A DNA stretch of 64,000 nucleotides from Escherichia phage A5-4. This document shows, piece by piece, positions 11,130 to 23,204 of the stretch (position 1 is its first letter; every line of letters starts with the position of its first letter). The DNA lies in sequence record OP744025, one strand, 5' to 3'. Under the pieces are notes generated by a model. That model made no database searches. It had not been told where the DNA came from and saw only the letters and a list, made by a program, of their open reading frames with translations. Both the position numbers and the translations under genes were made by a program.

Positions 11130-11429
11130 TTAGTGACAATCTCCCCAGCTGTATCCACAAAGGTATTCTCCAGTTATCATCACTGGTGATTTCATCATCT
11201 TAGCTGCTTGTTCGACACAACGAACAACCATCTCTCCTACAGGGCAGTATGTAATAGTGAAGATACCATTTTCATCTGGATCACACTTAAACTTCCCTTC
11301 CTTCACGCAATGACCATCCAAGATCATTTTCTTAGCCAAGCAAGCTTCTACAAATTTCTTCGCGTCAGCTTCATTGTCAAAGGTCCAAGTCTTCTTAAAC
11401 TTGTGTGGCACTTCAAGCTGGTATTCATC
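11130..11429 (-). CDS. DNA polymerase (family A, T7 gp5-like), exon 2
   Basis: Frame of ORF 11130..11480 from GAT at 11429: DEYQLEVPHKF... ending ...GYSWGDCH, matching the family A C-terminus (T7 ...NWAICH); completes motif C when joined to exon 1. Confidence 0.7.
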   Translation of the reverse strand, partial: DEYQLEVPHKFKKTWTFDNEADAKKFVEACLAKKMILDGHCVKEGKFKCDPDENGIFTITYCPVGEMVVRCVEQAAKMMKSPVMITGEYLCGYSWGDCH

Positions 11430-12201
11430 CAAAAGTTTAACGAGGTCGTTACTCTCGCCCACATCATTACATGTTGCCATACGTTTTCACGTATGGATCG
11501 GACTATATCACCATCCTTTTCAGGATGCTCCCCATTTCGACGGCACTTGCTCGCCTACGCCTCTCGGCTAGTCTCTGAACGTTAGGACCATGTGTAGTCA
11601 CAAGAGATGTGTGTCCAGTTTTTACGGATTTTTATGGACCTTACCACGTTGTAAGGATAACCCATATCCCGAATCTGTGCACTTCCATAACCTTGCCCCA
11701 GGAAGTTGCAAATCTCTCTAACCTCTTCTTCGGTAACTATACTTCTGGCGTTATCAACCCCTGTTGCTGAACGACATTTATCAGCAAAGGTTTTCTTGAT
11801 ATTTCCACCACGAGTTGTCCATTGGAGGTTTGAATAGTGGTTATTCCTTTTGTCAGGCCACTTATGATCAACCTCCGGCAAACCTTCAGGGTTTGGTACA
11901 AAACACTCTGCCACCAAAACGTGAACAGCCTTTGTAGTCGTCCTTTTGTTGAGATACAGACTTACAATAAGATACCCACGTCCATTATCAACTGCCGCCA
12001 TTGGTTTCCCTCGACGACCTATAATGGTCCCGTCTTCATAAACCTTGTAACCGAAATAATCTTTATATTCCACATGATCCTCTTCGCTGCTGATTAACAT
12101 AGTCTCATACTAACTCACACTTGAATTAATATCAACCTTAGTCTTCCAGCAATTAAAGGAGTTTTCGATGTGAGTTACCTCACAAAGCCACAATGTTACT
12201 T
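11430..12201 (-). mobile_element. group I intron carrying an HNH homing endonuclease gene, inserted in polymerase motif C
   Basis: 772 nt between codons H and D of HDE. 5-prime exon ends in U, intron ends in G. Contains P-like AAUUGCUGGAAGACU (12139-12153), Q-like AAUCAGCAGC (12086-12095), R-like GUUCAGAGACUA (11566-11581) and S-like GAUAUAGUCC (11500-11511). Confidence 0.7.
11582..12100 (-). CDS. HNH homing endonuclease (intron-encoded)
   Basis: 172 aa; GYLIVSL...AVHVLVAECF...VDHKWPDKRNNHYSNLQWTTRGGN is an HNH-3 type signature; lies between the two polymerase exons. Confidence 0.75.
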   Translation of the reverse strand: MLISSEEDHVEYKDYFGYKVYEDGTIIGRRGKPMAAVDNGRGYLIVSLYLNKRTTTKAVHVLVAECFVPNPEGLPEVDHKWPDKRNNHYSNLQWTTRGGNIKKTFADKCRSATGVDNARSIVTEEEVREICNFLGQGYGSAQIRDMGYPYNVVRSIKIRKNWTHISCDYTWS

Positions 12202-14085
12202 ATGGTAATAGATAATACGTCTAACGCCTTCATCATACCAACCTTTCTTGACCAACTGCCAGTGCAGGAGGATACCCACCAAGTCAAACAGTGCAGCACC
12301 ACCATTCTGCTGATAAGCATTAAGCAATGAGTGTTTGGAACGAGTGTAGATCTTACGCCCATCCAGACCATAGATGAATCGCTTACCGTTAGCTTCCCAA
12401 AACTTCTCTAATGCTTCTTTACGACCTTTCAAGCCGATGTTGCTATCCCAGAATGCGTCGATTACTGCTTGGGCTTTCTCAAGACTGATACCAAGCATTG
12501 ATGCAATCTTCGCTGCCTGTGCCCCGTACATGATTCCGTATGTCACCCCTTTACCTTCGCCACGAGAAACCTTCTTCCCTGCTGCTTTGGTATATGCTTC
12601 TGCGTTTCGGGAGTGAGCATCTCCAGATTCCATGATACGAAGATAAGCACCGCCATCGAAATCATAAGCGCCCCATGCTGCGATCATGCCTTCCAAGTTT
12701 GAACCGTCGATACCTACCTGATATTTACCCTCAGAGGCTCTGAATAGTTCACGCATCTCTTTACCGAGAAGAACTTTCTCATCCGGCTTAGGTACGTTTG
12801 CTACGATCGTATGCTTACGACGACCTGTGTTAGTTATTCCACTATAACGGGCCGGAAGTTTACCGTCAACTCGTAGACGTGGATGGTTAAGCCATCCGGT
12901 ATCAACCTTCTCTTCTTTCAGCGGGTCAAGAACAGATCGTCGGTTACGTAAAGACAGCCATTTAACAATCTGTTTAGCCATTTCACCATCTACTCGCTCA
13001 AGGTTAGGGCAAAGACCTTGCTGATCCTTAAGTTGCGGGGATGTTGGCAATGCACGAGCTTTCTTACGGAAAAACTTGAACATCTTTTCTTTATCTGACC
13101 ACTGCTTAGGTGTGATCGCCAAGCTTTTCAGAATCAGATCACGATACTCCGTCTGATCCAAATCTTCAATGTATTGACGAACAATCAGATCAACCTCACT
13201 ATCAGGACGCTGTTTCTTGAACTGATCTTTAGTTGCATCCTTTGTACGCCAAATTGTTGGGACCCACCCTGCATCACGGATCAGGAACTTCTTAACGTCG
13301 TCCTGGTTACCAATACGCATCGGAATCATAATGTCCGGCATCTTTTGTTCTTTGATATCCATCAAAGCACGAGCCATATCTTCCGGCGGCAAAGGAACAA
13401 GTCCTTGCTGCTTAACGTTTTGTGCACGGATAAAATCACCCATTTTGGATTCATCCTCTACACCGTGCTCAACACAATACTTGATCGCGGCGGCAGTAAG
13501 AGATCCGTCAGCCTTAAACGGCTTACTTGGTGCACCTTTAAACTCCAAGGCTTCCCAATTGATATTATAACCTAACTTCTCTAACCATTTCCAACCTGTA
13601 CCGGAAAGAGATCCATCACCCTTGAAAGGTTTAGATGGGAATGTCGGTTGTGCTGATTTCGACATCTCTTTCTTCGGCAACTTAGGTTCAACCTCTAACT
13701 CAATGTCTGTCATCATCTTATCGATACGATCACGAAGCTTGAGTGCTTTTTCTTCATCAAATGAAACACCCTGAATTTCTTGCTCAATCATCAGGTAGTC
13801 AGTCAACATACCTCGACGCAGGGCATTCTTCCAGTTGATCATTTTATACTTCTTCTGATCTTTGTCTGTTTCATCCTTATACATGAAGCGTTTATCATCC
13901 GGCATAGATTCACAAGAGATCTCTTTCATCAGAGCATCCCATACCATTTCGTTGATAATTACGTCTTCAATAATACGATCGCAATACTTCCAAAGTGGAA
14001 GGCCACGCCAATCTTCGATCGCCACTTTCTGGTTAGCTACTCGCATACCCCAAGCTTCAAGCCCGTGTGGCCCTACAGGCTTCAT
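12202..14085 (-). CDS. DNA polymerase (family A, T7 gp5-like), polymerase part, exon 1
   Basis: HGLEAWGMRV matches T7 HALEAWGYRLG; Exo III-like YCDRIIEDV; motif B region SRGEGKGVTYGIMYGAQAAKI; reading frame ends ...RRIIYYH at the intron junction (track ORF 12196..14085). Confidence 0.8.
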
Positions 14086-14531
14086 TTTACCGTGACGGGG
14101 TTCTTTACCATCTCAGGACAACCGCGAGGCAGAGGGCGATCTGGATACAGTGTACGGGACATTGAAAGTGTATCGAAGATGTTTACTTGTTTACCATTAA
14201 TCGTACCCATGCAACCAGGGTCTGCAAACATATCGTAAGTTGTTCCAAGCATCTTCTTAAACAACTGGAGGTCGTAGCCGAAGATGTTGTGGATAGCAAT
14301 TGCTTTAGGCTCTGTGACAAACCACTCGTTTAATTCCTCAATGGTCCGAATCTTAAAGTTTTTACCTTTAGATTGGATAAATTTAACAGCTTGATCGTAA
14401 CCTTCCCGCTGGGGATCAAGAAAGATGTTCCAGTTATCTTTTTTATACTCTTTAAACAAGACGCAGTGAATCAGATCAACCTCTGTCAATAGACCATTCG
14501 CTTCCGCATCTCCAATAAATAAGCCTTTCAT
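14082..14531 (-). CDS. DNA polymerase 3-prime-5-prime exonuclease N-terminal part (Exo I/II), separate frame
   Basis: Exo I FIGDAEANGL and Exo II AIHNIFGYD align with T7 gp5 DIEAN / HNGHKYD. Likely start ATG 14531 with GAAGGAG RBS. Stop overlaps the next ORF start (ATGA at 14082-14085). Confidence 0.7.
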   Translation of the reverse strand: MKGLFIGDAEANGLLTEVDLIHCVLFKEYKKDNWNIFLDPQREGYDQAVKFIQSKGKNFKIRTIEELNEWFVTEPKAIAIHNIFGYDLQLFKKMLGTTYDMFADPGCMGTINGKQVNIFDTLSMSRTLYPDRPLPRGCPEMVKNPVTVK

Positions 14532-14696
14532 TTTTTCTCCTTCTTCAAGCTCCAACTAGACTAAAACAAAGCCCAGCCGGAGGTATGACCCTTCGGCTAG
14601 GTTATCAAAAGTGTCGGTATCCTTCATCAATAAAATAAAGCATCACTAACAGGGCGAATACCCCACATAAGAAGATCAAGCCCAATAAGGTGGGCA

Positions 14697-15696: not shown

Positions 15697-16018
15697 AGTC
15701 CTCCCCATAAATATCTTGAATTTTTGAAACCAGGTATTCAGGATCACTACCATCATACCACACTTCTACGAAAACCTTTTGGGAATCCTTAACGATCTTT
15801 GCCCCTACTCTTTCAATCCCCTTAAAGAAAGATTGTAAGATGTAATCATCCAGCAAGTTCACCCCGTAAGCATCGTGGAGAGATTTCTCATCGTGAACAT
15901 ACACAACCATCTTACCATCGTAGGTGAGTTGGATATGGGGATCATCTTCCCAAGCAATAGCCGGAGAATCCGGCTCAAGCTTTGCGATAACCCCAATCGT
16001 CAAGCAGTTGTCACTCAC
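15686..16018 (-). CDS. hypothetical protein
   Basis: 110 aa acidic protein; ATGA-type overlap with the upstream gene. Confidence 0.5.
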   Translation of the reverse strand: MSDNCLTIGVIAKLEPDSPAIAWEDDPHIQLTYDGKMVVYVHDEKSLHDAYGVNLLDDYILQSFFKGIERVGAKIVKDSQKVFVEVWYDGSDPEYLVSKIQDIYGEDYDV

Positions 16019-17232
16019 TCCTTACCTCCTGCGATACGTAACATTTGGATAGTTTTCTCCAGTTCTTTACGAGGTTTGGCAACCAGGCGACGTTCATGTC
16101 GCTTAAGGAAACCCTCTAAAAACTCCAACGGTTTAAATGATAACACTTCCTGAACTGATTCGTCAACAGCATATTCTTTCTGGACCATACGATAAACCGG
16201 ATTCTTTACAGTTACCGGAGTATAACCCTTCGTGATCGCCATCTGAGTAACAACACGTTTCTTACCGTCGGTCCACGAATCGTCAATAGGGAAAGAATCT
16301 TTTCCGTATTTTTCAGCGAACAACTTAACTGCTGTCTTTGTCAGGTCGTCCTGATCTTCTTGTGACCGACTTTGACCCCAATAATAGCCACCAGAGGTCT
16401 TAGCACGACGTTCTGAGAACAAAGCAAGGTCATCGTACTGCTCAAGAGCTAAACGCGCCAGAAGTTCGATATCGTCGCTTTCTGACAGTAGTCGGTTTGC
16501 TTCGTACTTAACCTCAAAAGTATTTGCACTGTCACGATCACGGTCAAGAGTAAAAGCCTCTGGCTTAAAATCATAATCGAATTTAAAATTACCTGGAACA
16601 CGAGTAACGAACAGTCCATTTACAAACAGGTTGCAGTCGCCACCTGTGATAGAGCCATCCTCTTCTTCATTTTGGTATTCGTCCGCAGCATTGTATAGCT
16701 TAGTATAAGCTTTACCGCGGTCATTCTGAATAACGACTGTACGTTCAGTAGTTGGTGCATAGTTATCCATAATTTCCGACATAGCGTACTGAGGGATGTT
16801 TTCAATGATAACGGTCACAGTATTTGAATCACGACCCGATAAGGCGTTTTCATGGATATCCACCGCCAAAATGTTCTGTTCGTATGTGGTATCGTAAACC
16901 ATATTTGGAATCCAAAGATCATTACCATTTTCGATAACGATATCTGCGCCTTCACGAACAAGCACCAGAAGACCCACTTTCAGACCTTCACCAAACTTAC
17001 CGATCTTACTGTCATCATCACGTTTGGTTGAAACACCCATCAAAAGGCCGGAAACAGGAACAACACCGCCACGAGAGATGATTGTGATCTTACCTTGATT
17101 ACTATCATCATTCCCAAAATAAATATTGAAATCTTCTGTATCGATAGCATTTTGCATGAGTTCACGAGCACCTTGCCACCATGACCAGTGGCTGACGTAA
17201 TTTTCAGTGATGCTCAATTTAATCTGTTTCAT
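16015..17232 (-). CDS. GHKL (Bergerat-fold) ATPase-like protein
   Basis: 405 aa; N-box-like ELMQNAIDT and G2-box-like IGKFGEGLKVG; remainder unassigned. Confidence 0.45.
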   Translation of the reverse strand: MKQIKLSITENYVSHWSWWQGARELMQNAIDTEDFNIYFGNDDSNQGKITIISRGGVVPVSGLLMGVSTKRDDDSKIGKFGEGLKVGLLVLVREGADIVIENGNDLWIPNMVYDTTYEQNILAVDIHENALSGRDSNTVTVIIENIPQYAMSEIMDNYAPTTERTVVIQNDRGKAYTKLYNAADEYQNEEEDGSITGGDCNLFVNGLFVTRVPGNFKFDYDFKPEAFTLDRDRDSANTFEVKYEANRLLSESDDIELLARLALEQYDDLALFSERRAKTSGGYYWGQSRSQEDQDDLTKTAVKLFAEKYGKDSFPIDDSWTDGKKRVVTQMAITKGYTPVTVKNPVYRMVQKEYAVDESVQEVLSFKPLEFLEGFLKRHERRLVAKPRKELEKTIQMLRIAGGKE

Positions 17233-17244
17233 TTATTTGTCCTC

Positions 17245-17961
17245 TTATTTGTTGTATTGATAAATTGCTTCAGCTAAGCCCCGTGGGGTTAGTGACCGGA
17301 TCATCTTAGTTCTTGCTGACTTACCTCCTAACTTATTCTGCTGATCTGACCAACCAGGTGCAACAGGAACCGGAGAGGTTTTTGGAATTATAAACCCATT
17401 TCCTGTCCAAAGTCCAGTCTTTTTCGGATAAGCATCCCTTGGTTTAATGTATTGAGGAAAATAAGGGTTAACATCATTTACCGGAAGGTAACCGCCATAT
17501 TCCCAAGGGTTAAAATATACAGTAGGTTTTCGCCATTGTCCAGCTAAAACACTTACTGGGTTTTCAATCATATACGGACAATCGAAAACAAATTCAGCAA
17601 GCCAAGCTGCAATCTTCGCAGTTCTTACCGCCTTGACCTGGAAGAAAGGATCTTTTGCTTTCTTCGATGCAAAGTGACGAGAACCACTAACAGCCATATC
17701 GGTACATGGAGGATAGGCAAGGATCAGGTCCGGCGCAGGCAATCCTAAGTTCTCTACATTCTCCATCCATTCAATATCGATAAAGGCGTTAACGTAAGTG
17801 ATGTTGGGATGAATTTCCTTTACGCCTTCATAATCCCCGTGATCAGCATCGTCATAGTTGAAGCAGTAGCATTTGTGCCCTGCCTTCGCCCAGGGAAGAA
17901 CATCAATCCCTGAACCAGAAAAGAGACTCCAGATAATCTTTTTATTCATCGTAGCATCCAA
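17245..17961 (-). CDS. DNA cytosine-C5 methyltransferase-like protein (short form)
   Basis: 238 aa; motif I-like WSLFSGSGIDVL, motif IV-like LAYPPCTDMAVSGS, motif VI-like MIENPVSVL; no obvious target-recognition domain. Confidence 0.5.
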   Translation of the reverse strand: MDATMNKKIIWSLFSGSGIDVLPWAKAGHKCYCFNYDDADHGDYEGVKEIHPNITYVNAFIDIEWMENVENLGLPAPDLILAYPPCTDMAVSGSRHFASKKAKDPFFQVKAVRTAKIAAWLAEFVFDCPYMIENPVSVLAGQWRKPTVYFNPWEYGGYLPVNDVNPYFPQYIKPRDAYPKKTGLWTGNGFIIPKTSPVPVAPGWSDQQNKLGGKSARTKMIRSLTPRGLAEAIYQYNK

Positions 17962-18254
17962 ATAGTGGTTAATTTACAAATACACCAGAAAATCCCGATC
18001 AGTGTAGCCAGAGTAATAACACAAGTCAATACTATAGGTAAGAATATCGTCATAATCACTGCAAAGACTGAAATACCTATGCTTGCAATAAGATCCGGCA
18101 CGAAATAGTGAAATGGATCTCTTGCCTTTTTAATGTTGTCCCATGTTATTACTACGGAGCTAAGGACGAGCCAGAATAAAAAGTACAAAATGCAAGGAAA
18201 TAAAGTCATGTGTGACTTAACCATATCAAACCACATGTTGTAGAATTCAATCAT
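17946..18254 (-). CDS. hypothetical membrane protein
   Basis: 102 aa, three hydrophobic segments. Confidence 0.5.
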   Translation of the reverse strand: MIEFYNMWFDMVKSHMTLFPCILYFLFWLVLSSVVITWDNIKKARDPFHYFVPDLIASIGISVFAVIMTIFLPIVLTCVITLATLIGIFWCICKLTTIWMLR

Positions 18255-18574
18255 TCAGTTTTCCTCGGTACAGATGCAATAACAGCCTTTTCGACGAGAC
18301 ATACAATAAATCTCCCAATCCCTGCCAAAAGGAGAGCAAAGACTGTAAAAGGCAACCCATAAATAAGAACCAAAATCATCAATCCAAAACAAGCGGAAAA
18401 CAGGACTTCTGTGCCTAGCCACATTTTGGAGTAATTGATATAATTATGCCGCAATTTTAAAAACAGTCCAGCAATAGAGCCTACAGAAAATATACCAATC
18501 AACCAAGGTGCAGTTACAAATGAACGACTGAACCCTTCCCAAAAAACAAAAACATTAATGATTGCTTCGATCAT
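18251..18574 (-). CDS. hypothetical membrane protein
   Basis: 107 aa, hydrophobic segments; 4-nt overlap. Confidence 0.5.
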   Translation of the reverse strand: MIEAIINVFVFWEGFSRSFVTAPWLIGIFSVGSIAGLFLKLRHNYINYSKMWLGTEVLFSACFGLMILVLIYGLPFTVFALLLAGIGRFIVCLVEKAVIASVPRKTE

Positions 18575-20373: not shown

Positions 20374-20405
20374 TAGAAAAAACCGCCCGAAGGCGGTTTA
20401 TTTTT
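20371..20405. terminator. bidirectional rho-independent terminator
   Basis: Hairpin ccgccc-gaag-gcgg flanked by A-run and T-run, immediately downstream of the helicase gene; same hairpin recurs at 62178-62193. Confidence 0.6.
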
Positions 20406-20409
20406 AGGA

Positions 20410-21516
20410 TCAGAAAGGTGCGTCGTCGTCCCAATCATCCGGCTCTGTGTCCGGCACATCAGGAATATCACCTGTGGATTCAACGATACTTTGTTGTTCC
20501 CACGTAGGTTCTTCTGAAGGTTGTTCCATTTCTTCCATAACCTTCTTGATCTCTTCCTCTTGCTCACGCAGGAAGTTATCATCCGGCTCAGGAATATCTT
20601 CCTCTTTAATATCTGAACGAGTGAGATCACTGTTTTGTTCAGACAGAGGTTGAATCTCTGCTGCTTTAGGCTTAAAGTCTGGAGAACGATGATCATCTTC
20701 TGGATGAGCGGCATACCACTCACGAAGAGTTTCATAAGGACTCTCTAAGAAGCCCTCTGGCGGTTCCAGATAATCACCCGTGTCAATGTCATAGAACACA
20801 GGGAATTTACCAGCACGACCGTGTTTACGGTCATCCAGAATAACAAAGTAAGAAGTGTTACGTTGTTTCATCGGGAGTTCTGGATCTTTGTTACGTTCAA
20901 TACCCCACATGTAATAAGTGTTACGCATCATTGCACGGCTACCAGCAAACTGCGCTGACTGGACTTGACCACCAAATTCATGAGGCTTACCAGATTCAGG
21001 CTTGTTAAGGTGACAGAAGCAATAATAGGTAAAGCCAAGCTCTTTTGCCAGTTTGGAGATCTCATCAGAGAATCGTTCCAGTTCCTGGTTAGCTTCGGAA
21101 GCACTCATACCTTGCACAAGACGAGTGATTGGGTCAATAAAGATATCTTCACAACCTTCTACGATCACTGCGTGACGGATAGCACCTTTCAGTTCATCCC
21201 ATACTGCACGACCATAGTTGTTATAATAGATAACACTATCACCAACTTCATCAGTAGCCTTGATCAGTTCTTCTTGCTTAAAGTAGCCACGTTGACCTTC
21301 AAATACTTCATTACCCCAAATGTCACGGAAAGTTCCATCTTCTTGAGGAATCATTACCTTTTCTGCGTTAACAAAGTCTTTATGATAACGCTTACCTGCG
21401 ATCTTTTTACAGGTAATTTCGTTCTCTTCTTCAAACTTAAACACCGCAGCCTTTGACTTCTCAATACCTGTAATGTGTTCTACCATCTGGTTAAGAAGTT
21501 CAGACTTACCCATTTT
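20410..21516 (-). CDS. primase-helicase (T7 gp4-like), helicase domain, exon 2
   Basis: Begins within Walker A (..KMGKSELL); CFCHLNKPESGKPHEFGGQVQSAQFAGSRAMMRNTYYMWGIERN aligns with T7 gp4 [32 protein letters not shown]...IALERN; acidic C-terminus ...DDWDDDAPF. Exon start uncertain by a few nt. Confidence 0.75.
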   Translation of the reverse strand, partial: KMGKSELLNQMVEHITGIEKSKAAVFKFEEENEITCKKIAGKRYHKDFVNAEKVMIPQEDGTFRDIWGNEVFEGQRGYFKQEELIKATDEVGDSVIYYNNYGRAVWDELKGAIRHAVIVEGCEDIFIDPITRLVQGMSASEANQELERFSDEISKLAKELGFTYYCFCHLNKPESGKPHEFGGQVQSAQFAGSRAMMRNTYYMWGIERNKDPELPMKQRNTSYFVILDDRKHGRAGKFPVFYDIDTGDYLEPPEGFLESPYETLREWYAAHPEDDHRSPDFKPKAAEIQPLSEQNSDLTRSDIKEEDIPEPDDNFLREQEEEIKKVMEEMEQPSEEPTWEQQSIVESTGDIPDVPDTEPDDWDDDAPF

Positions 21517-22268
21517 CACCGTTATGTTCGACAGGGTTCGCTACTCCCTGCCCGTTCTCTTACGAACTGCTACATGTCCCCATGCAGACCAGACTATATC
21601 TTCAACCTGTTTCCAGGTGCTATGCACTTCGGACCGCTTGGCCCTACTCTACTCGATTCAAGAGTCTAGCTCTTGTCTTTCGATAGTCGTTGCTCCTTCC
21701 TCTCAACCGCTTTGTAATTTGTCTTACGGTATCTCTGTGTATCCCAAAATGCTCTGCAATTTCTTTTTGTTGAAGCGTGGTATTAATAACCATTTCGTAA
21801 ACCTGCTTCTCAAAATCATCAGCATATCTATTTGGATTTCTTCTACCGTTGGCCCAACCATGATCGACATTTTCTTTCGTGGTTGTCCATTCCAAATTAA
21901 CATCGTTGTTGTTTTGCCTGTCGCTATCTTTATGATTAACAACAGGAAGGTTATGAGGGTTATCAACGTAGTGTTCAGCCACCAATTGGTGAATAAATCT
22001 ACGTGTAACCTTACCATCTTTACTTAACGAAACTCTAAGATACCCTGAACTATTGGTATCCGGTTTGAGTTTTTTAAGCTTCCGGTAAACATCTCCCCTT
22101 CGGGTAATGATGTAATTTTCAAAACCTTTTATTCTTTTCATTTCCCCCCCTTGCAATAAACAAAGAGGTTGAGAGGCTTGGATCAGGATTACGTGTTCTA
22201 CGCTTCCCCTGAGTTCACATAGTATTTAGTCGAGGCATCTCTGCCAAGGCTGGCTAGACTTAATGTTT
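21517..22268 (-). mobile_element. group I intron carrying an HNH homing endonuclease gene, inserted in helicase Walker A codons
   Basis: About 750 nt between ...FIGAG and (K)MGKS...; S-like AAGAUAUAGUCU (21591-21606); R-like CAACGACUAUCG (21681-21695); candidate P/Q in the 5-prime part (CUCAGGGGAAGCG, AAUCCUGAUCC). Boundaries approximate. Confidence 0.6.
21644..22156 (-). CDS. HNH homing endonuclease (intron-encoded)
   Basis: 170 aa; GYLRVSL...FIHQLVAEHYVDNPHNLPVVNHKDSDRQNNNDVNLEWTTTKEN is an HNH signature; probable true start at the internal ATG (MKRIKGF). Confidence 0.75.
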   Translation of the reverse strand: MQGGEMKRIKGFENYIITRRGDVYRKLKKLKPDTNSSGYLRVSLSKDGKVTRRFIHQLVAEHYVDNPHNLPVVNHKDSDRQNNNDVNLEWTTTKENVDHGWANGRRNPNRYADDFEKQVYEMVINTTLQQKEIAEHFGIHRDTVRQITKRLRGRSNDYRKTRARLLNRVE

Positions 22269-23204
22269 ACCAGCACCGATGAAGTAACCTTCACCTGGAC
22301 GACGACCCAAGGTAAGCTTGGTCATGGTGGGCCAAGGGAACTTCTTGCCGAGTTTAGGGATCTCATGTGCCTTTTCGCGGAACTGTGAATAAGTCGAGAA
22401 ACCATCCGGCACATATTCCTTTGGCTTCATTGCAGCCCAAAACAACTGATCAGAAAGTCCTTTGTTATACATGTCGCAAGGGTCCATATCTTCTGGAATG
22501 TCCACGACCTTCATTTGTGGAATTACAGAGTATACCGCTGCAACTGCATCTTTACCTTTCATGATCCCTTTGGCCTTCTCTGCTTCTGTCGCACGGTCAG
22601 CATCGAAAGCTACGATAATCTCTTCAAACTTACTCAGAAGCTTATAGTTATTCTTCTGTGATAAGTTTTGCACGGCATTGGATGTACCGTTAGAGATAGA
22701 TACAACTGTGAAGTTTGGTTTACGAGTGGAACCATCCTTCGGTTTGTACTTCTCTGTCAATACCTGCCACAAGATTGCAGCATCATATTCACCTTCAGTG
22801 ATAAAGATCATACGTTTGGAAGACTTATTTGCACCTTCCAGCCCAAACATATCACAAGCCACAGATTGGAAACCAATAGTTGTAAAGTGACCTTTCTGTT
22901 GCTTAGGGATCGTAAGATCACGCTTCTTAAAACCTACAACCTTACCTTCTAATGTATACGGGAAATAATGTGCTTCTGGTGTCATACCGTCTTTAGCTGA
23001 CAGTTTGGTACGAATACCAAATCGTTTAGCTGTCTTTTCGTCGATACCGCGCTCAGGGATACTTTTGCACGGGTAAGTCAATACGTCTTCAACTGTTTCT
23101 TCTACACGAGACACACCACCACCATAATTACGTGCTACTGAAGCTTTAGGATTTTTATGTCCAAACTTATAACCGCCAAACAAACTTTCGCCAATAGTGC
23201 TCAT
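22269..23204 (-). CDS. primase-helicase (T7 gp4-like), primase (TOPRIM) domain, exon 1
   Basis: KRMIFITEGEYDAAIL, VVSISNGTSNA, IIVAFDADRATEAE, EYVPDGFSTY and TLGRRPGE align with T7 gp4 TEGEIDMLTV, VVSLGHGASAA, ILMFDMDEAGRKA, PWIPDGVVS, TLGARGGE. No N-terminal Cys4 zinc-binding domain. Frame stops 3 codons after the proposed splice site. Confidence 0.75.

Follow-up and report, generated by a model that had tools for sequence, protein, structure and literature searches.

A short Dcm-like methyltransferase and a GHKL-like protein encoded side by side in a Septuagintavirus coliphage are probably independent neighbours

Introduction

The 64,000-nucleotide (nt) stretch of Escherichia phage A5-4 analysed here (sequence record OP744025), which we call the window, carries two adjacent genes on its minus strand, one for a protein with the motifs of a GHKL-type ATPase and the other for a short cytosine-C5 methyltransferase (the methylase). 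A primase/helicase gene lies on one side of them and a DNA polymerase gene on the other. A first-pass annotation of the window had suggested that the two products could act jointly in DNA modification or in countering restriction. The question raised by this locus is what each protein does, and whether the two work together. The open reading frames (ORFs) and the signal between them are as follows.

16015..17232, minus strand: GHKL (Bergerat-fold) ATPase-like protein of phrog_6077, 405 amino acids (aa) from ATG, assigned from ORF, profile and model
17240..17244, minus strand: GAGGA ribosome-binding site of the GHKL gene, read from the sequence, 7 bases before the ATG and within the 12-nt spacer that follows the methylase stop codon
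17245-17961, minus strand: methylase ORF at its mechanical maximum, 238 aa from TTG
17245..17949, minus strand: putative compact orphan C5-cytosine DNA methyltransferase ('Dcm-like'), 234 aa from the ATG at 17949

Both ORFs (16015-17232 and 17245-17961) had been correctly placed by the first-pass annotation. For the methylase, the ATG at 17949 is the likelier start, because it shares bases with the stop of the ORF before it (ATGA) and gives a product equal in length to the 234-residue GenBank homologue A71_165.

The window shares 97.6% identity with Escherichia phage A7_1 and 93–94% with W70, A73, LTH01 and UPEC06, all of which belong to the genus Septuagintavirus of the Vequintavirinae (PMC11370258). 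It is thus a Septuagintavirus, an rV5-like coliphage. Overall, the locus is probably best read as a short-Dcm methylase beside an independent GHKL-like protein, which we tentatively take for a switch. The two would be separate early or middle genes, adjacent through the history of the lineage, and not the halves of a two-part system; that they are functionally independent is very likely.

The GHKL-like protein family

The Pfam scan of the 405-residue protein gave no match, and the NCBIfam and PADLOC scans returned sub-threshold matches only (a sacsin-type ATP-binding domain scoring 25 bits where 50 are required, and TmtA at E 2e-4). PHROG 6077, a family of unknown function, matches the protein end to end. 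A search of the Protein Data Bank (PDB) with the single sequence came back empty, and with a profile of the family the best match was MORC2, at a non-significant E of 0.15. The G2-box aligns with the MORC2 segment IGQYGNGLKSG, and MORC is the closest resemblance at the level of motifs.

A profile search of 1.84 billion cluster representatives recovered 6,341 relatives at E <= 1e-3, of which 1,704 reach E <= 1e-30. Relatives of about 1,100 residues, in which the N-terminal module of about 220 residues occurs three times in tandem, pass the gathering thresholds of the Pfam families HATPase_c and HATPase_c_3. The tandem-repeat proteins are the following.

P0185-P0190, P0200, P0206, P0209 and P0213 (for example, L010:671-3988): metagenomic GHKL proteins of about 940-1,120 aa with three modules

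Each copy of the module bears the canonical DxGxG and FGEGLK signature, and DxGxG is retained in P0177 and P0178 also. Because the tandem-repeat relatives pass the HATPase thresholds with a canonical DxGxG, the members of phrog_6077 are tied firmly to the GHKL superfamily; the original assignment of the 405-residue protein to the GHKL/Bergerat group, as neither a topoisomerase nor a MutL, is upheld. The tandem arrangement is reminiscent of sacsin, which has three Hsp90-like repeats.

The family is essentially viral. The gene is present in 100 phage records, and relatives in Vibrio phage records bear the annotation 'histidine kinase-like ATPase'. When one genome of each bacterial or archaeal species was scanned, with peptide patterns that limit the scan and make it undercount, eight relatives came back, mostly on contigs of metagenome-assembled genomes; the 'genomic' match in Sphingobacterium sits in a region that is plainly phage. 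A connection with thymidine-hypermodification clusters, considered on account of homologues in Pseudomonas phages PaMx11 and Ab18, was dropped, since the gene has no neighbours in Ab18 besides a ligase, an exonuclease and hypothetical proteins. Counting over 6,000 clusters (50% identity), in phages of Proteobacteria, Bacteroidota and Firmicutes, the family is among the larger phage families of unknown function, and the biochemistry of one member would annotate thousands of genes.

Conserved and altered motifs of the GHKL-like protein

The protein comprises an N-terminal GHKL domain (residues ~1–145), a small β-rich domain (~160–225) and a variable C-terminal α/β region (~238–405). Its characteristic motifs are listed below.

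17140..17163, minus strand: N-box E24-x-x-Q-N28-x-x-D31, with the catalytic Glu and the Mg-binding Asn; E24, Q27, N28 and D31 invariant in alignment A1
17062..17076, minus strand: degenerate G1-box S53-R-G-G-V57 in place of DxGxG, from the sequence and the family alignment
16978..17001, minus strand: G2-box/ATP lid G78-K-F-G81-E82-G83-L-K85; G78, G81, E82, G83 and K85 invariant
16534..16542, minus strand: R231-D232-R233, on the junction that follows the second domain; invariant throughout A1, and likewise in no fewer than 137 of 139 family representatives

Residues were counted in 139 single-module representatives of the family. E24, N28, D31, K70, G78, E82, G83, K85 and the R231-D232-R233 triplet are each present in at least 136 of them. 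The position of the G1-box aspartate, by contrast, is occupied by Ser in 67, Asn in 49, Thr in 19 and Asp in only 2, and the second glycine of DxGxG shows no conservation. What is new in this analysis is that the G1-box aspartate has been lost across the family, with the catalytic residues remaining invariant. A role for R231-D232-R233 as a sensor of the γ-phosphate may be envisaged by inference only.

The AlphaFold2 (AF2) model of the protein, calculated from a 38-sequence alignment, has a mean predicted local distance difference test (pLDDT) score of 84 and displays the α/β sandwich of the Bergerat fold. As modelled, the protein belongs by its Bergerat fold to the GHL/MORC branch; the second domain is possibly transducer-like, and the C-terminal region that comes after it is unrelated. 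The protein has an isoelectric point of 4.9 and no transmembrane segment.

Function of the GHKL-like protein

We propose, tentatively, that the protein is a nucleotide-driven switch that operates early in infection. Soluble, acidic and standing alone, it keeps the catalytic glutamate, the Mg-binding asparagine and the lid glycines and has lost the adenine-contacting aspartate; it would work as a nucleotide-driven conformational switch or clamp of the MORC, Hsp90 or rIIA type with altered base recognition. Its target would be a host or phage macromolecule, in the course of takeover or counter-defence, and it would play no part in DNA methylation. Two considerations tell against this proposal. 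Without the G1 aspartate, the protein could bind no nucleotide at all, and our literature searches found no characterised phage GHKL protein of this type.

If nucleotide binding did disappear with the G1 aspartate, the protein would be a pseudo-ATPase, its fold serving as a scaffold or binding module that might, for example, inhibit a host protein. The replacement of the aspartate by Ser, Asn or Thr in 135 of the 139 representatives, the lack of conservation of the second glycine and the failure of all the Pfam HATPase models to detect the 405-residue protein fit this explanation. We nevertheless think it rather unlikely, since Glu24, Asn28, Asp31 and the glycines of the G2-box are essentially invariant across thousands of diverged sequences, which is hard to explain without nucleotide chemistry. 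Retention of the catalytic glutamate and the Mg-binding asparagine argues against a dead scaffold, and loss of the aspartate argues for altered base recognition.

The switch proposal can be taken further. The whole clade may have retooled its base pocket (Asp to Ser, Asn or Thr) with catalysis kept, so as to accept a ligand other than ATP, such as another NTP or a nucleotide immune signal, the protein then serving phages generally in counter-defence or host takeover, overlooked so far in thousands of their lineages. In this extended form we consider the idea unlikely.

A different possibility is that the protein does the work of T4 rIIA in a shorter form, guarding the phage against abortive-infection systems, prophage-encoded or other. 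Once true family members are set aside, rIIA proteins dominate the structural matches in BFVD (E 1e-7 to 1e-8), and both families join a conserved N-terminal GHKL module to a variable C-terminus. Moreover, rIIA and rIIB are reported to be absent from Certrevirus CB7 (PMC7344957), and other members of Certrevirus carry the GHKL protein. The detailed comparison is less favourable. An hhalign comparison with T4 rIIA gave E 0.008 and a probability of 5% over 90 columns, a generic likeness from N-box to G2-box only, on which rIIA orthology was rejected. rIIA has a DxGxG motif, some 725 residues and a partner, rIIB, and no rIIB-like neighbour is conserved at the GHKL loci. The GHKL protein is present in the Seunavirus 4MG, and another Seunavirus, PVP-SE1, is reported to have both rIIA and rIIB (PMC7344957); at the level of the genus, the rIIA and rIIB content of 4MG itself not having been looked at, the two families thus appear not to be mutually exclusive. 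Taken together, these results make an rIIA-like role quite improbable.

Linkage of the two genes

Were the two genes a functional pair, a MORC-like ATPase might, for example, load or stimulate a methylase poor in target-recognition domain (TRD), the two together bringing about DNA modification or anti-restriction. Such a role has been proposed for MORC homologues linked to restriction-modification systems. The arrangement of the genes is suggestive, in that they are co-oriented with a 12-nt spacer and occur in the identical order in CR9 and in three Certrevirus-like viral contigs; in addition, the methylase is nearly devoid of a TRD, so that a helper is conceivable, and the motifs of the GHKL protein are most like those of MORC.

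The distribution of the genes argues otherwise. We clustered 59 GHKL loci by their called ORFs, comprising 52 viral contigs, five phage regions from GenBank, one metagenome contig and the window. Only the window and the three Certrevirus-like contigs have a methylase homologue within 4–6 kb of the GHKL gene; CR9 and UPEC06, which were searched separately from this set, also have a methylase near it. The approximately 50 loci of other lineages have none within 4–6 kb, nor do they share any other neighbour: across lineages no conserved neighbour of the GHKL gene was found in the 59 loci, the cross-lineage clusters consisting of antisense shadow ORFs only. The adjacency is therefore synteny inside one lineage, made up of Certrevirus and Septuagintavirus.

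Even in this clade, the methylase is dispensable. In PcCB7V, a 62-residue ORF directly upstream of the GHKL gene (L002:6816-7004) is annotated 'N-type ATP pyrophosphatase'. This ORF is the decayed C-terminal remnant of a methylase, 27 of its residues being 67% identical to residues 211–237 of the window protein. The neighbouring GHKL gene is annotated 'chaperon protein htpG'. Phages phiTE, DU_PP_I and DU_PP_IV are reported to be without a cytosine methylase (CB7 paper, PMC7344957), and DU_PP_I carries a GHKL protein 70% identical to that of the window. PcCB7V and DU_PP_I have thus retained the GHKL gene without the methylase.

The two genes also differ in their divergence. Between the window and Certrevirus at the same locus, the methylases are 46% identical and the adjacent GHKL proteins 70%, and the window methylase is closer to the methylases of unrelated phages (55–62%) than to that of Certrevirus, which suggests that the methylase cassette has been exchanged independently. 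Furthermore, the methylase is found in 1,521 phage records and the GHKL gene in 100, and the Dcm of phage K42, a homologue of the window methylase, is active when expressed alone in Escherichia coli (10.1101/2023.08.16.553469). Since each gene occurs without the other and no linkage crosses lineages, the joint role suggested at the outset is not sustained, and we regard a functional pair as very improbable. The 12-nt spacing, co-transcription and the position of the methylase just upstream in three of the four Certrevirus-like contigs and in CR9 weigh on the other side; they leave a link specific to this lineage as a formal possibility.

The methylase

The methylase matches phrog_757, 'DNA methyltransferase', end to end with an E of 5e-78. 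With the Pfam family PF00145, it aligns over residues 11–109 only and scores 20.7 bits, below the gathering cut-off of 22. By tblastn it is present in the 1,521 phage records, which include T1-like Drexlerviridae, rV5-like phages and Klebsiella Webervirus among many others. KarlJaspers (Bas06) is among them, and its 'Dcm-like C5 cytosine methyltransferase' shares 55% identity with the window protein over the full length (234 of 236 residues). A cytosine methylase found by HHpred is already listed in the description of Septuagintavirus (PMC11370258). The 234-residue protein is a member of a known, experimentally supported family of short phage Dcm proteins, to which nothing new is added here.

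Its motifs were examined in an alignment of 26 homologues (A2), with residue numbers following the 238-residue ORF. The reference order of the motifs, IX and X included, is that of M.HhaI.

17908..17922, minus strand: motif I, F14-S-G-S-G18, the S-adenosylmethionine (AdoMet)-binding loop; G16, S17 and G18 conserved in at least 90% of A2
17701..17712, minus strand: motif IV, P84-P-C86-T, with the catalytic cysteine; P84, P85 and C86 invariant in A2
17557..17565, minus strand: motif VI, E133-N-P for the ENV of the reference enzymes, whose Glu contacts the target cytosine; E133, N134 and P135 invariant in A2
17419..17424, minus strand: K180-K181, replacing QxRxR of motif VIII; K180 invariant and K181 in at least 90% of A2
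17281..17298, minus strand: motif IX-like R222-S-L-T-P-R227; R222, S223, L224, P226 and R227 invariant in A2

In place of the QxRxR of C5-methyltransferase motif VIII, there is P-K180-K181-T, in which T182 is invariant as well as K180. The chain ends 11 residues past motif IX, and motif X (GN) is absent. The lack of a TRD remarked on in the first-pass annotation is borne out as far as a canonical large domain is concerned; some 40 residues (183–221) nevertheless remain between the motif VIII equivalent and motif IX, preceded by a segment of about 30 residues (150–178) that is conserved in the family, and the missing motif X had gone unnoted. The AF2 model has a pLDDT of 90. In a Foldseek comparison of the model with solved structures, the best matches are the catalytic domains of DNMT3A and DNMT3B (E ~2e-7, TM-score 0.4–0.5), and the top 36 matches consist of DNMT3A/B, MET1 and one prophage methyltransferase. 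The authors of the K42 study likewise compared their Dcm structurally with DNMT3A/B (10.1101/2023.08.16.553469). The K42 residues C82, E128, K175 and K176 align with C86, E133, K180 and K181 of the window protein, and all four are identical. The architecture is unusually minimal, yet it lies inside a family with published activity.

The identification as a C5-methyltransferase thus stands, on the phrog_757 match, the DNMT3A/B fold and the 55% identity to an active phage Dcm. These results, together with the relatives of the GHKL protein that pass the HATPase thresholds, mean that the motifs quoted from the sequence alone (ELMQNAIDT, residues 24–32, and IGKFGEGLKVG, residues 77–87, of the 405-residue protein; FSGSG, 14–18, PPCT, 84–87, and ENP, 133–135, of the 238-residue protein) are more than chance matches. 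Direct searches with Pfam gave little, PF00145 falling under its cut-off and the 405-residue protein having no match. For the methylase, with its 55%-identical homologue of published activity, the view that no function is evident is out of date.

Probable methylation and its proposed consequences

The functional evidence comes from a study of the 711-bp dcm gene of K42, a strain of KarlJaspers with 95.4% genome identity to Bas06, in connection with retron Ec86 (bioRxiv 10.1101/2023.08.16.553469). Four of four phage mutants escaping the retron had disruptions of dcm or of the region upstream of it, and expression of the K42 Dcm was toxic only in the presence of retron Ec86/Eco1. Mass spectrometry coupled to liquid chromatography (LC-MS) found 5-methylcytosine (5mC) in the multicopy single-stranded DNA (msDNA) of the retron to be high with the wild-type enzyme but not with the C82A/E128A/K175A/K176A mutant, and defence was lost once the CCTGG site of the msDNA was mutated (10.1101/2023.08.16.553469).

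The window methylase is very likely an active DNA C5-methyltransferase and, by analogy with this homologue, its target is probably CCWGG. The window contains 97 CCWGG sites, where dinucleotide-preserving shuffles lead one to expect 73.6 +/- 8.5; the sequence is mildly enriched and not avoided, which is compatible with protection by methylation. It counts against this target assignment that, for the short Dcm family, CCWGG was deduced, in a dcm+ host, from that host's own Dcm and from mutants of the msDNA, and that the window enzyme is 55% identical to the enzyme concerned. In the mechanism we envisage, the methylase would use AdoMet, Cys86 as the nucleophile and Glu133 to methylate cytosines of the replicating phage DNA; the modification would shield the phage genome from restriction enzymes that it blocks and, as a side effect, would betray the phage to sensors of the retron Eco1 type. 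The main use of the gene would be in prediction: with it, this phage should be sensitive to Eco1-type retrons, and restriction enzymes that 5mC blocks should not affect it.

That the 234-residue protein is not a DNA methyltransferase, acting instead on another substrate (a free nucleotide or RNA) or transferring a group other than methyl, is scarcely credible, for although it has neither a canonical TRD nor motif X, falls under the Pfam threshold and has a K42 homologue whose 5mC was measured only on a bulk hydrolysate of msDNA, that homologue raises the 5mC of DNA in a manner dependent on the catalytic residues, the fold matches are DNA C5-methyltransferases, and the catalytic PPC and ENP motifs are invariant.

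Transcription and neighbouring genes

The ORFs around the two genes are packed tightly, and many overlap. A consensus scan, on which the following assignments are based, found these signals.

20373-20345, minus strand: near-consensus σ70 promoter (TTGACA-17-TATACT)
20380-20399: hairpin terminator with a perfect 8-bp GC-rich stem, a terminator on both strands
14695-14680: next terminator-like site

The promoter comes directly after the hairpin, and the two part the primase/helicase gene from a block of small early genes. The promoter is likely, as judged from these signals, to be the start of the transcription unit that includes the methylase and the GHKL gene. Early σ70-like promoters have been reported in the corresponding region of Certrevirus (PMC7344957). 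At about 33–34 kb of the window, the GC skew changes from negative to positive, coinciding with the switch from minus- to plus-strand genes; the change marks divergent transcription modules.

Directly upstream of the methylase, on the minus strand at 17946-18574, are two small and very hydrophobic ORFs of 102 and 107 residues, which overlap the methylase and one another by 4 nt. They look like membrane proteins, and no homologue of either was found among the 58 other GHKL loci compared.

Both flanking replication genes are split. The DNA polymerase gene (11133-14555, minus strand) is broken twice relative to the single coding sequence of UPEC06 and A7_1. The first break is a 1-nt deletion near 14091 (GTCAC-GGTAAA versus GTCACAGGTAAA in three relatives), giving ORFs of 157 and 629 residues; this frameshift could be real or a sequencing error. 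The second is an insertion of ~770 bp with an HNH endonuclease ORF (11582-12100), which parts residue 777 of the polymerase (12202) from residues 778–876 (11429-11133) and resembles an intron bearing a homing endonuclease, of the kind described in Certrevirus CB7. The primase/helicase gene (20449-23204, minus strand) is also split by an HNH endonuclease ORF (21644-22156); compared with the single PcCB7V gene, residues 1–312 are encoded at 23204-22269 and residues 276–678 at 21636-20449.

Comparison with known systems

The window methylase has motifs I, IV and VI in common with E. coli Dcm and enzymes of the M.EcoRII type (PF00145) and, presumably, the CCWGG target; it differs from them in falling below the Pfam threshold, in having no large TRD and no motif X, and in bearing KK for QxRxR. 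With the catalytic domains of DNMT3A and DNMT3B it shares the Rossmann core of the C5-methyltransferases and a very small target-recognition region. The identity is nevertheless 13–19%, and the phage protein is shorter by about 50 residues, stopping after motif IX without motif X. Its closest characterised counterpart in these comparisons, the K42/KarlJaspers Dcm, is of similar length (236 residues against 234), belongs to the same PHROG 757, is 55% identical, and has the same catalytic Cys, ENP Glu and KK pair. The K42 enzyme comes from the Drexlerviridae and the window enzyme from the Vequintavirinae, and the production of 5mC and the triggering of retron Eco1 belong to the former.

The GHKL-like protein departs from MORC, Hsp90, MutL and the type II topoisomerases in having no G1 aspartate and no Toprim, MutL C-terminal, CW or coiled-coil domains, and its C-terminal domain is unrelated to theirs. 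With T4 rIIA it shares the character of a phage-specific early protein in which a GHKL module at the N-terminus is joined to a variable C-terminus, although it is half as long and is without DxGxG and an rIIB partner. We regard rIIA as the nearest named relative of the GHKL-like protein, but not as its family.

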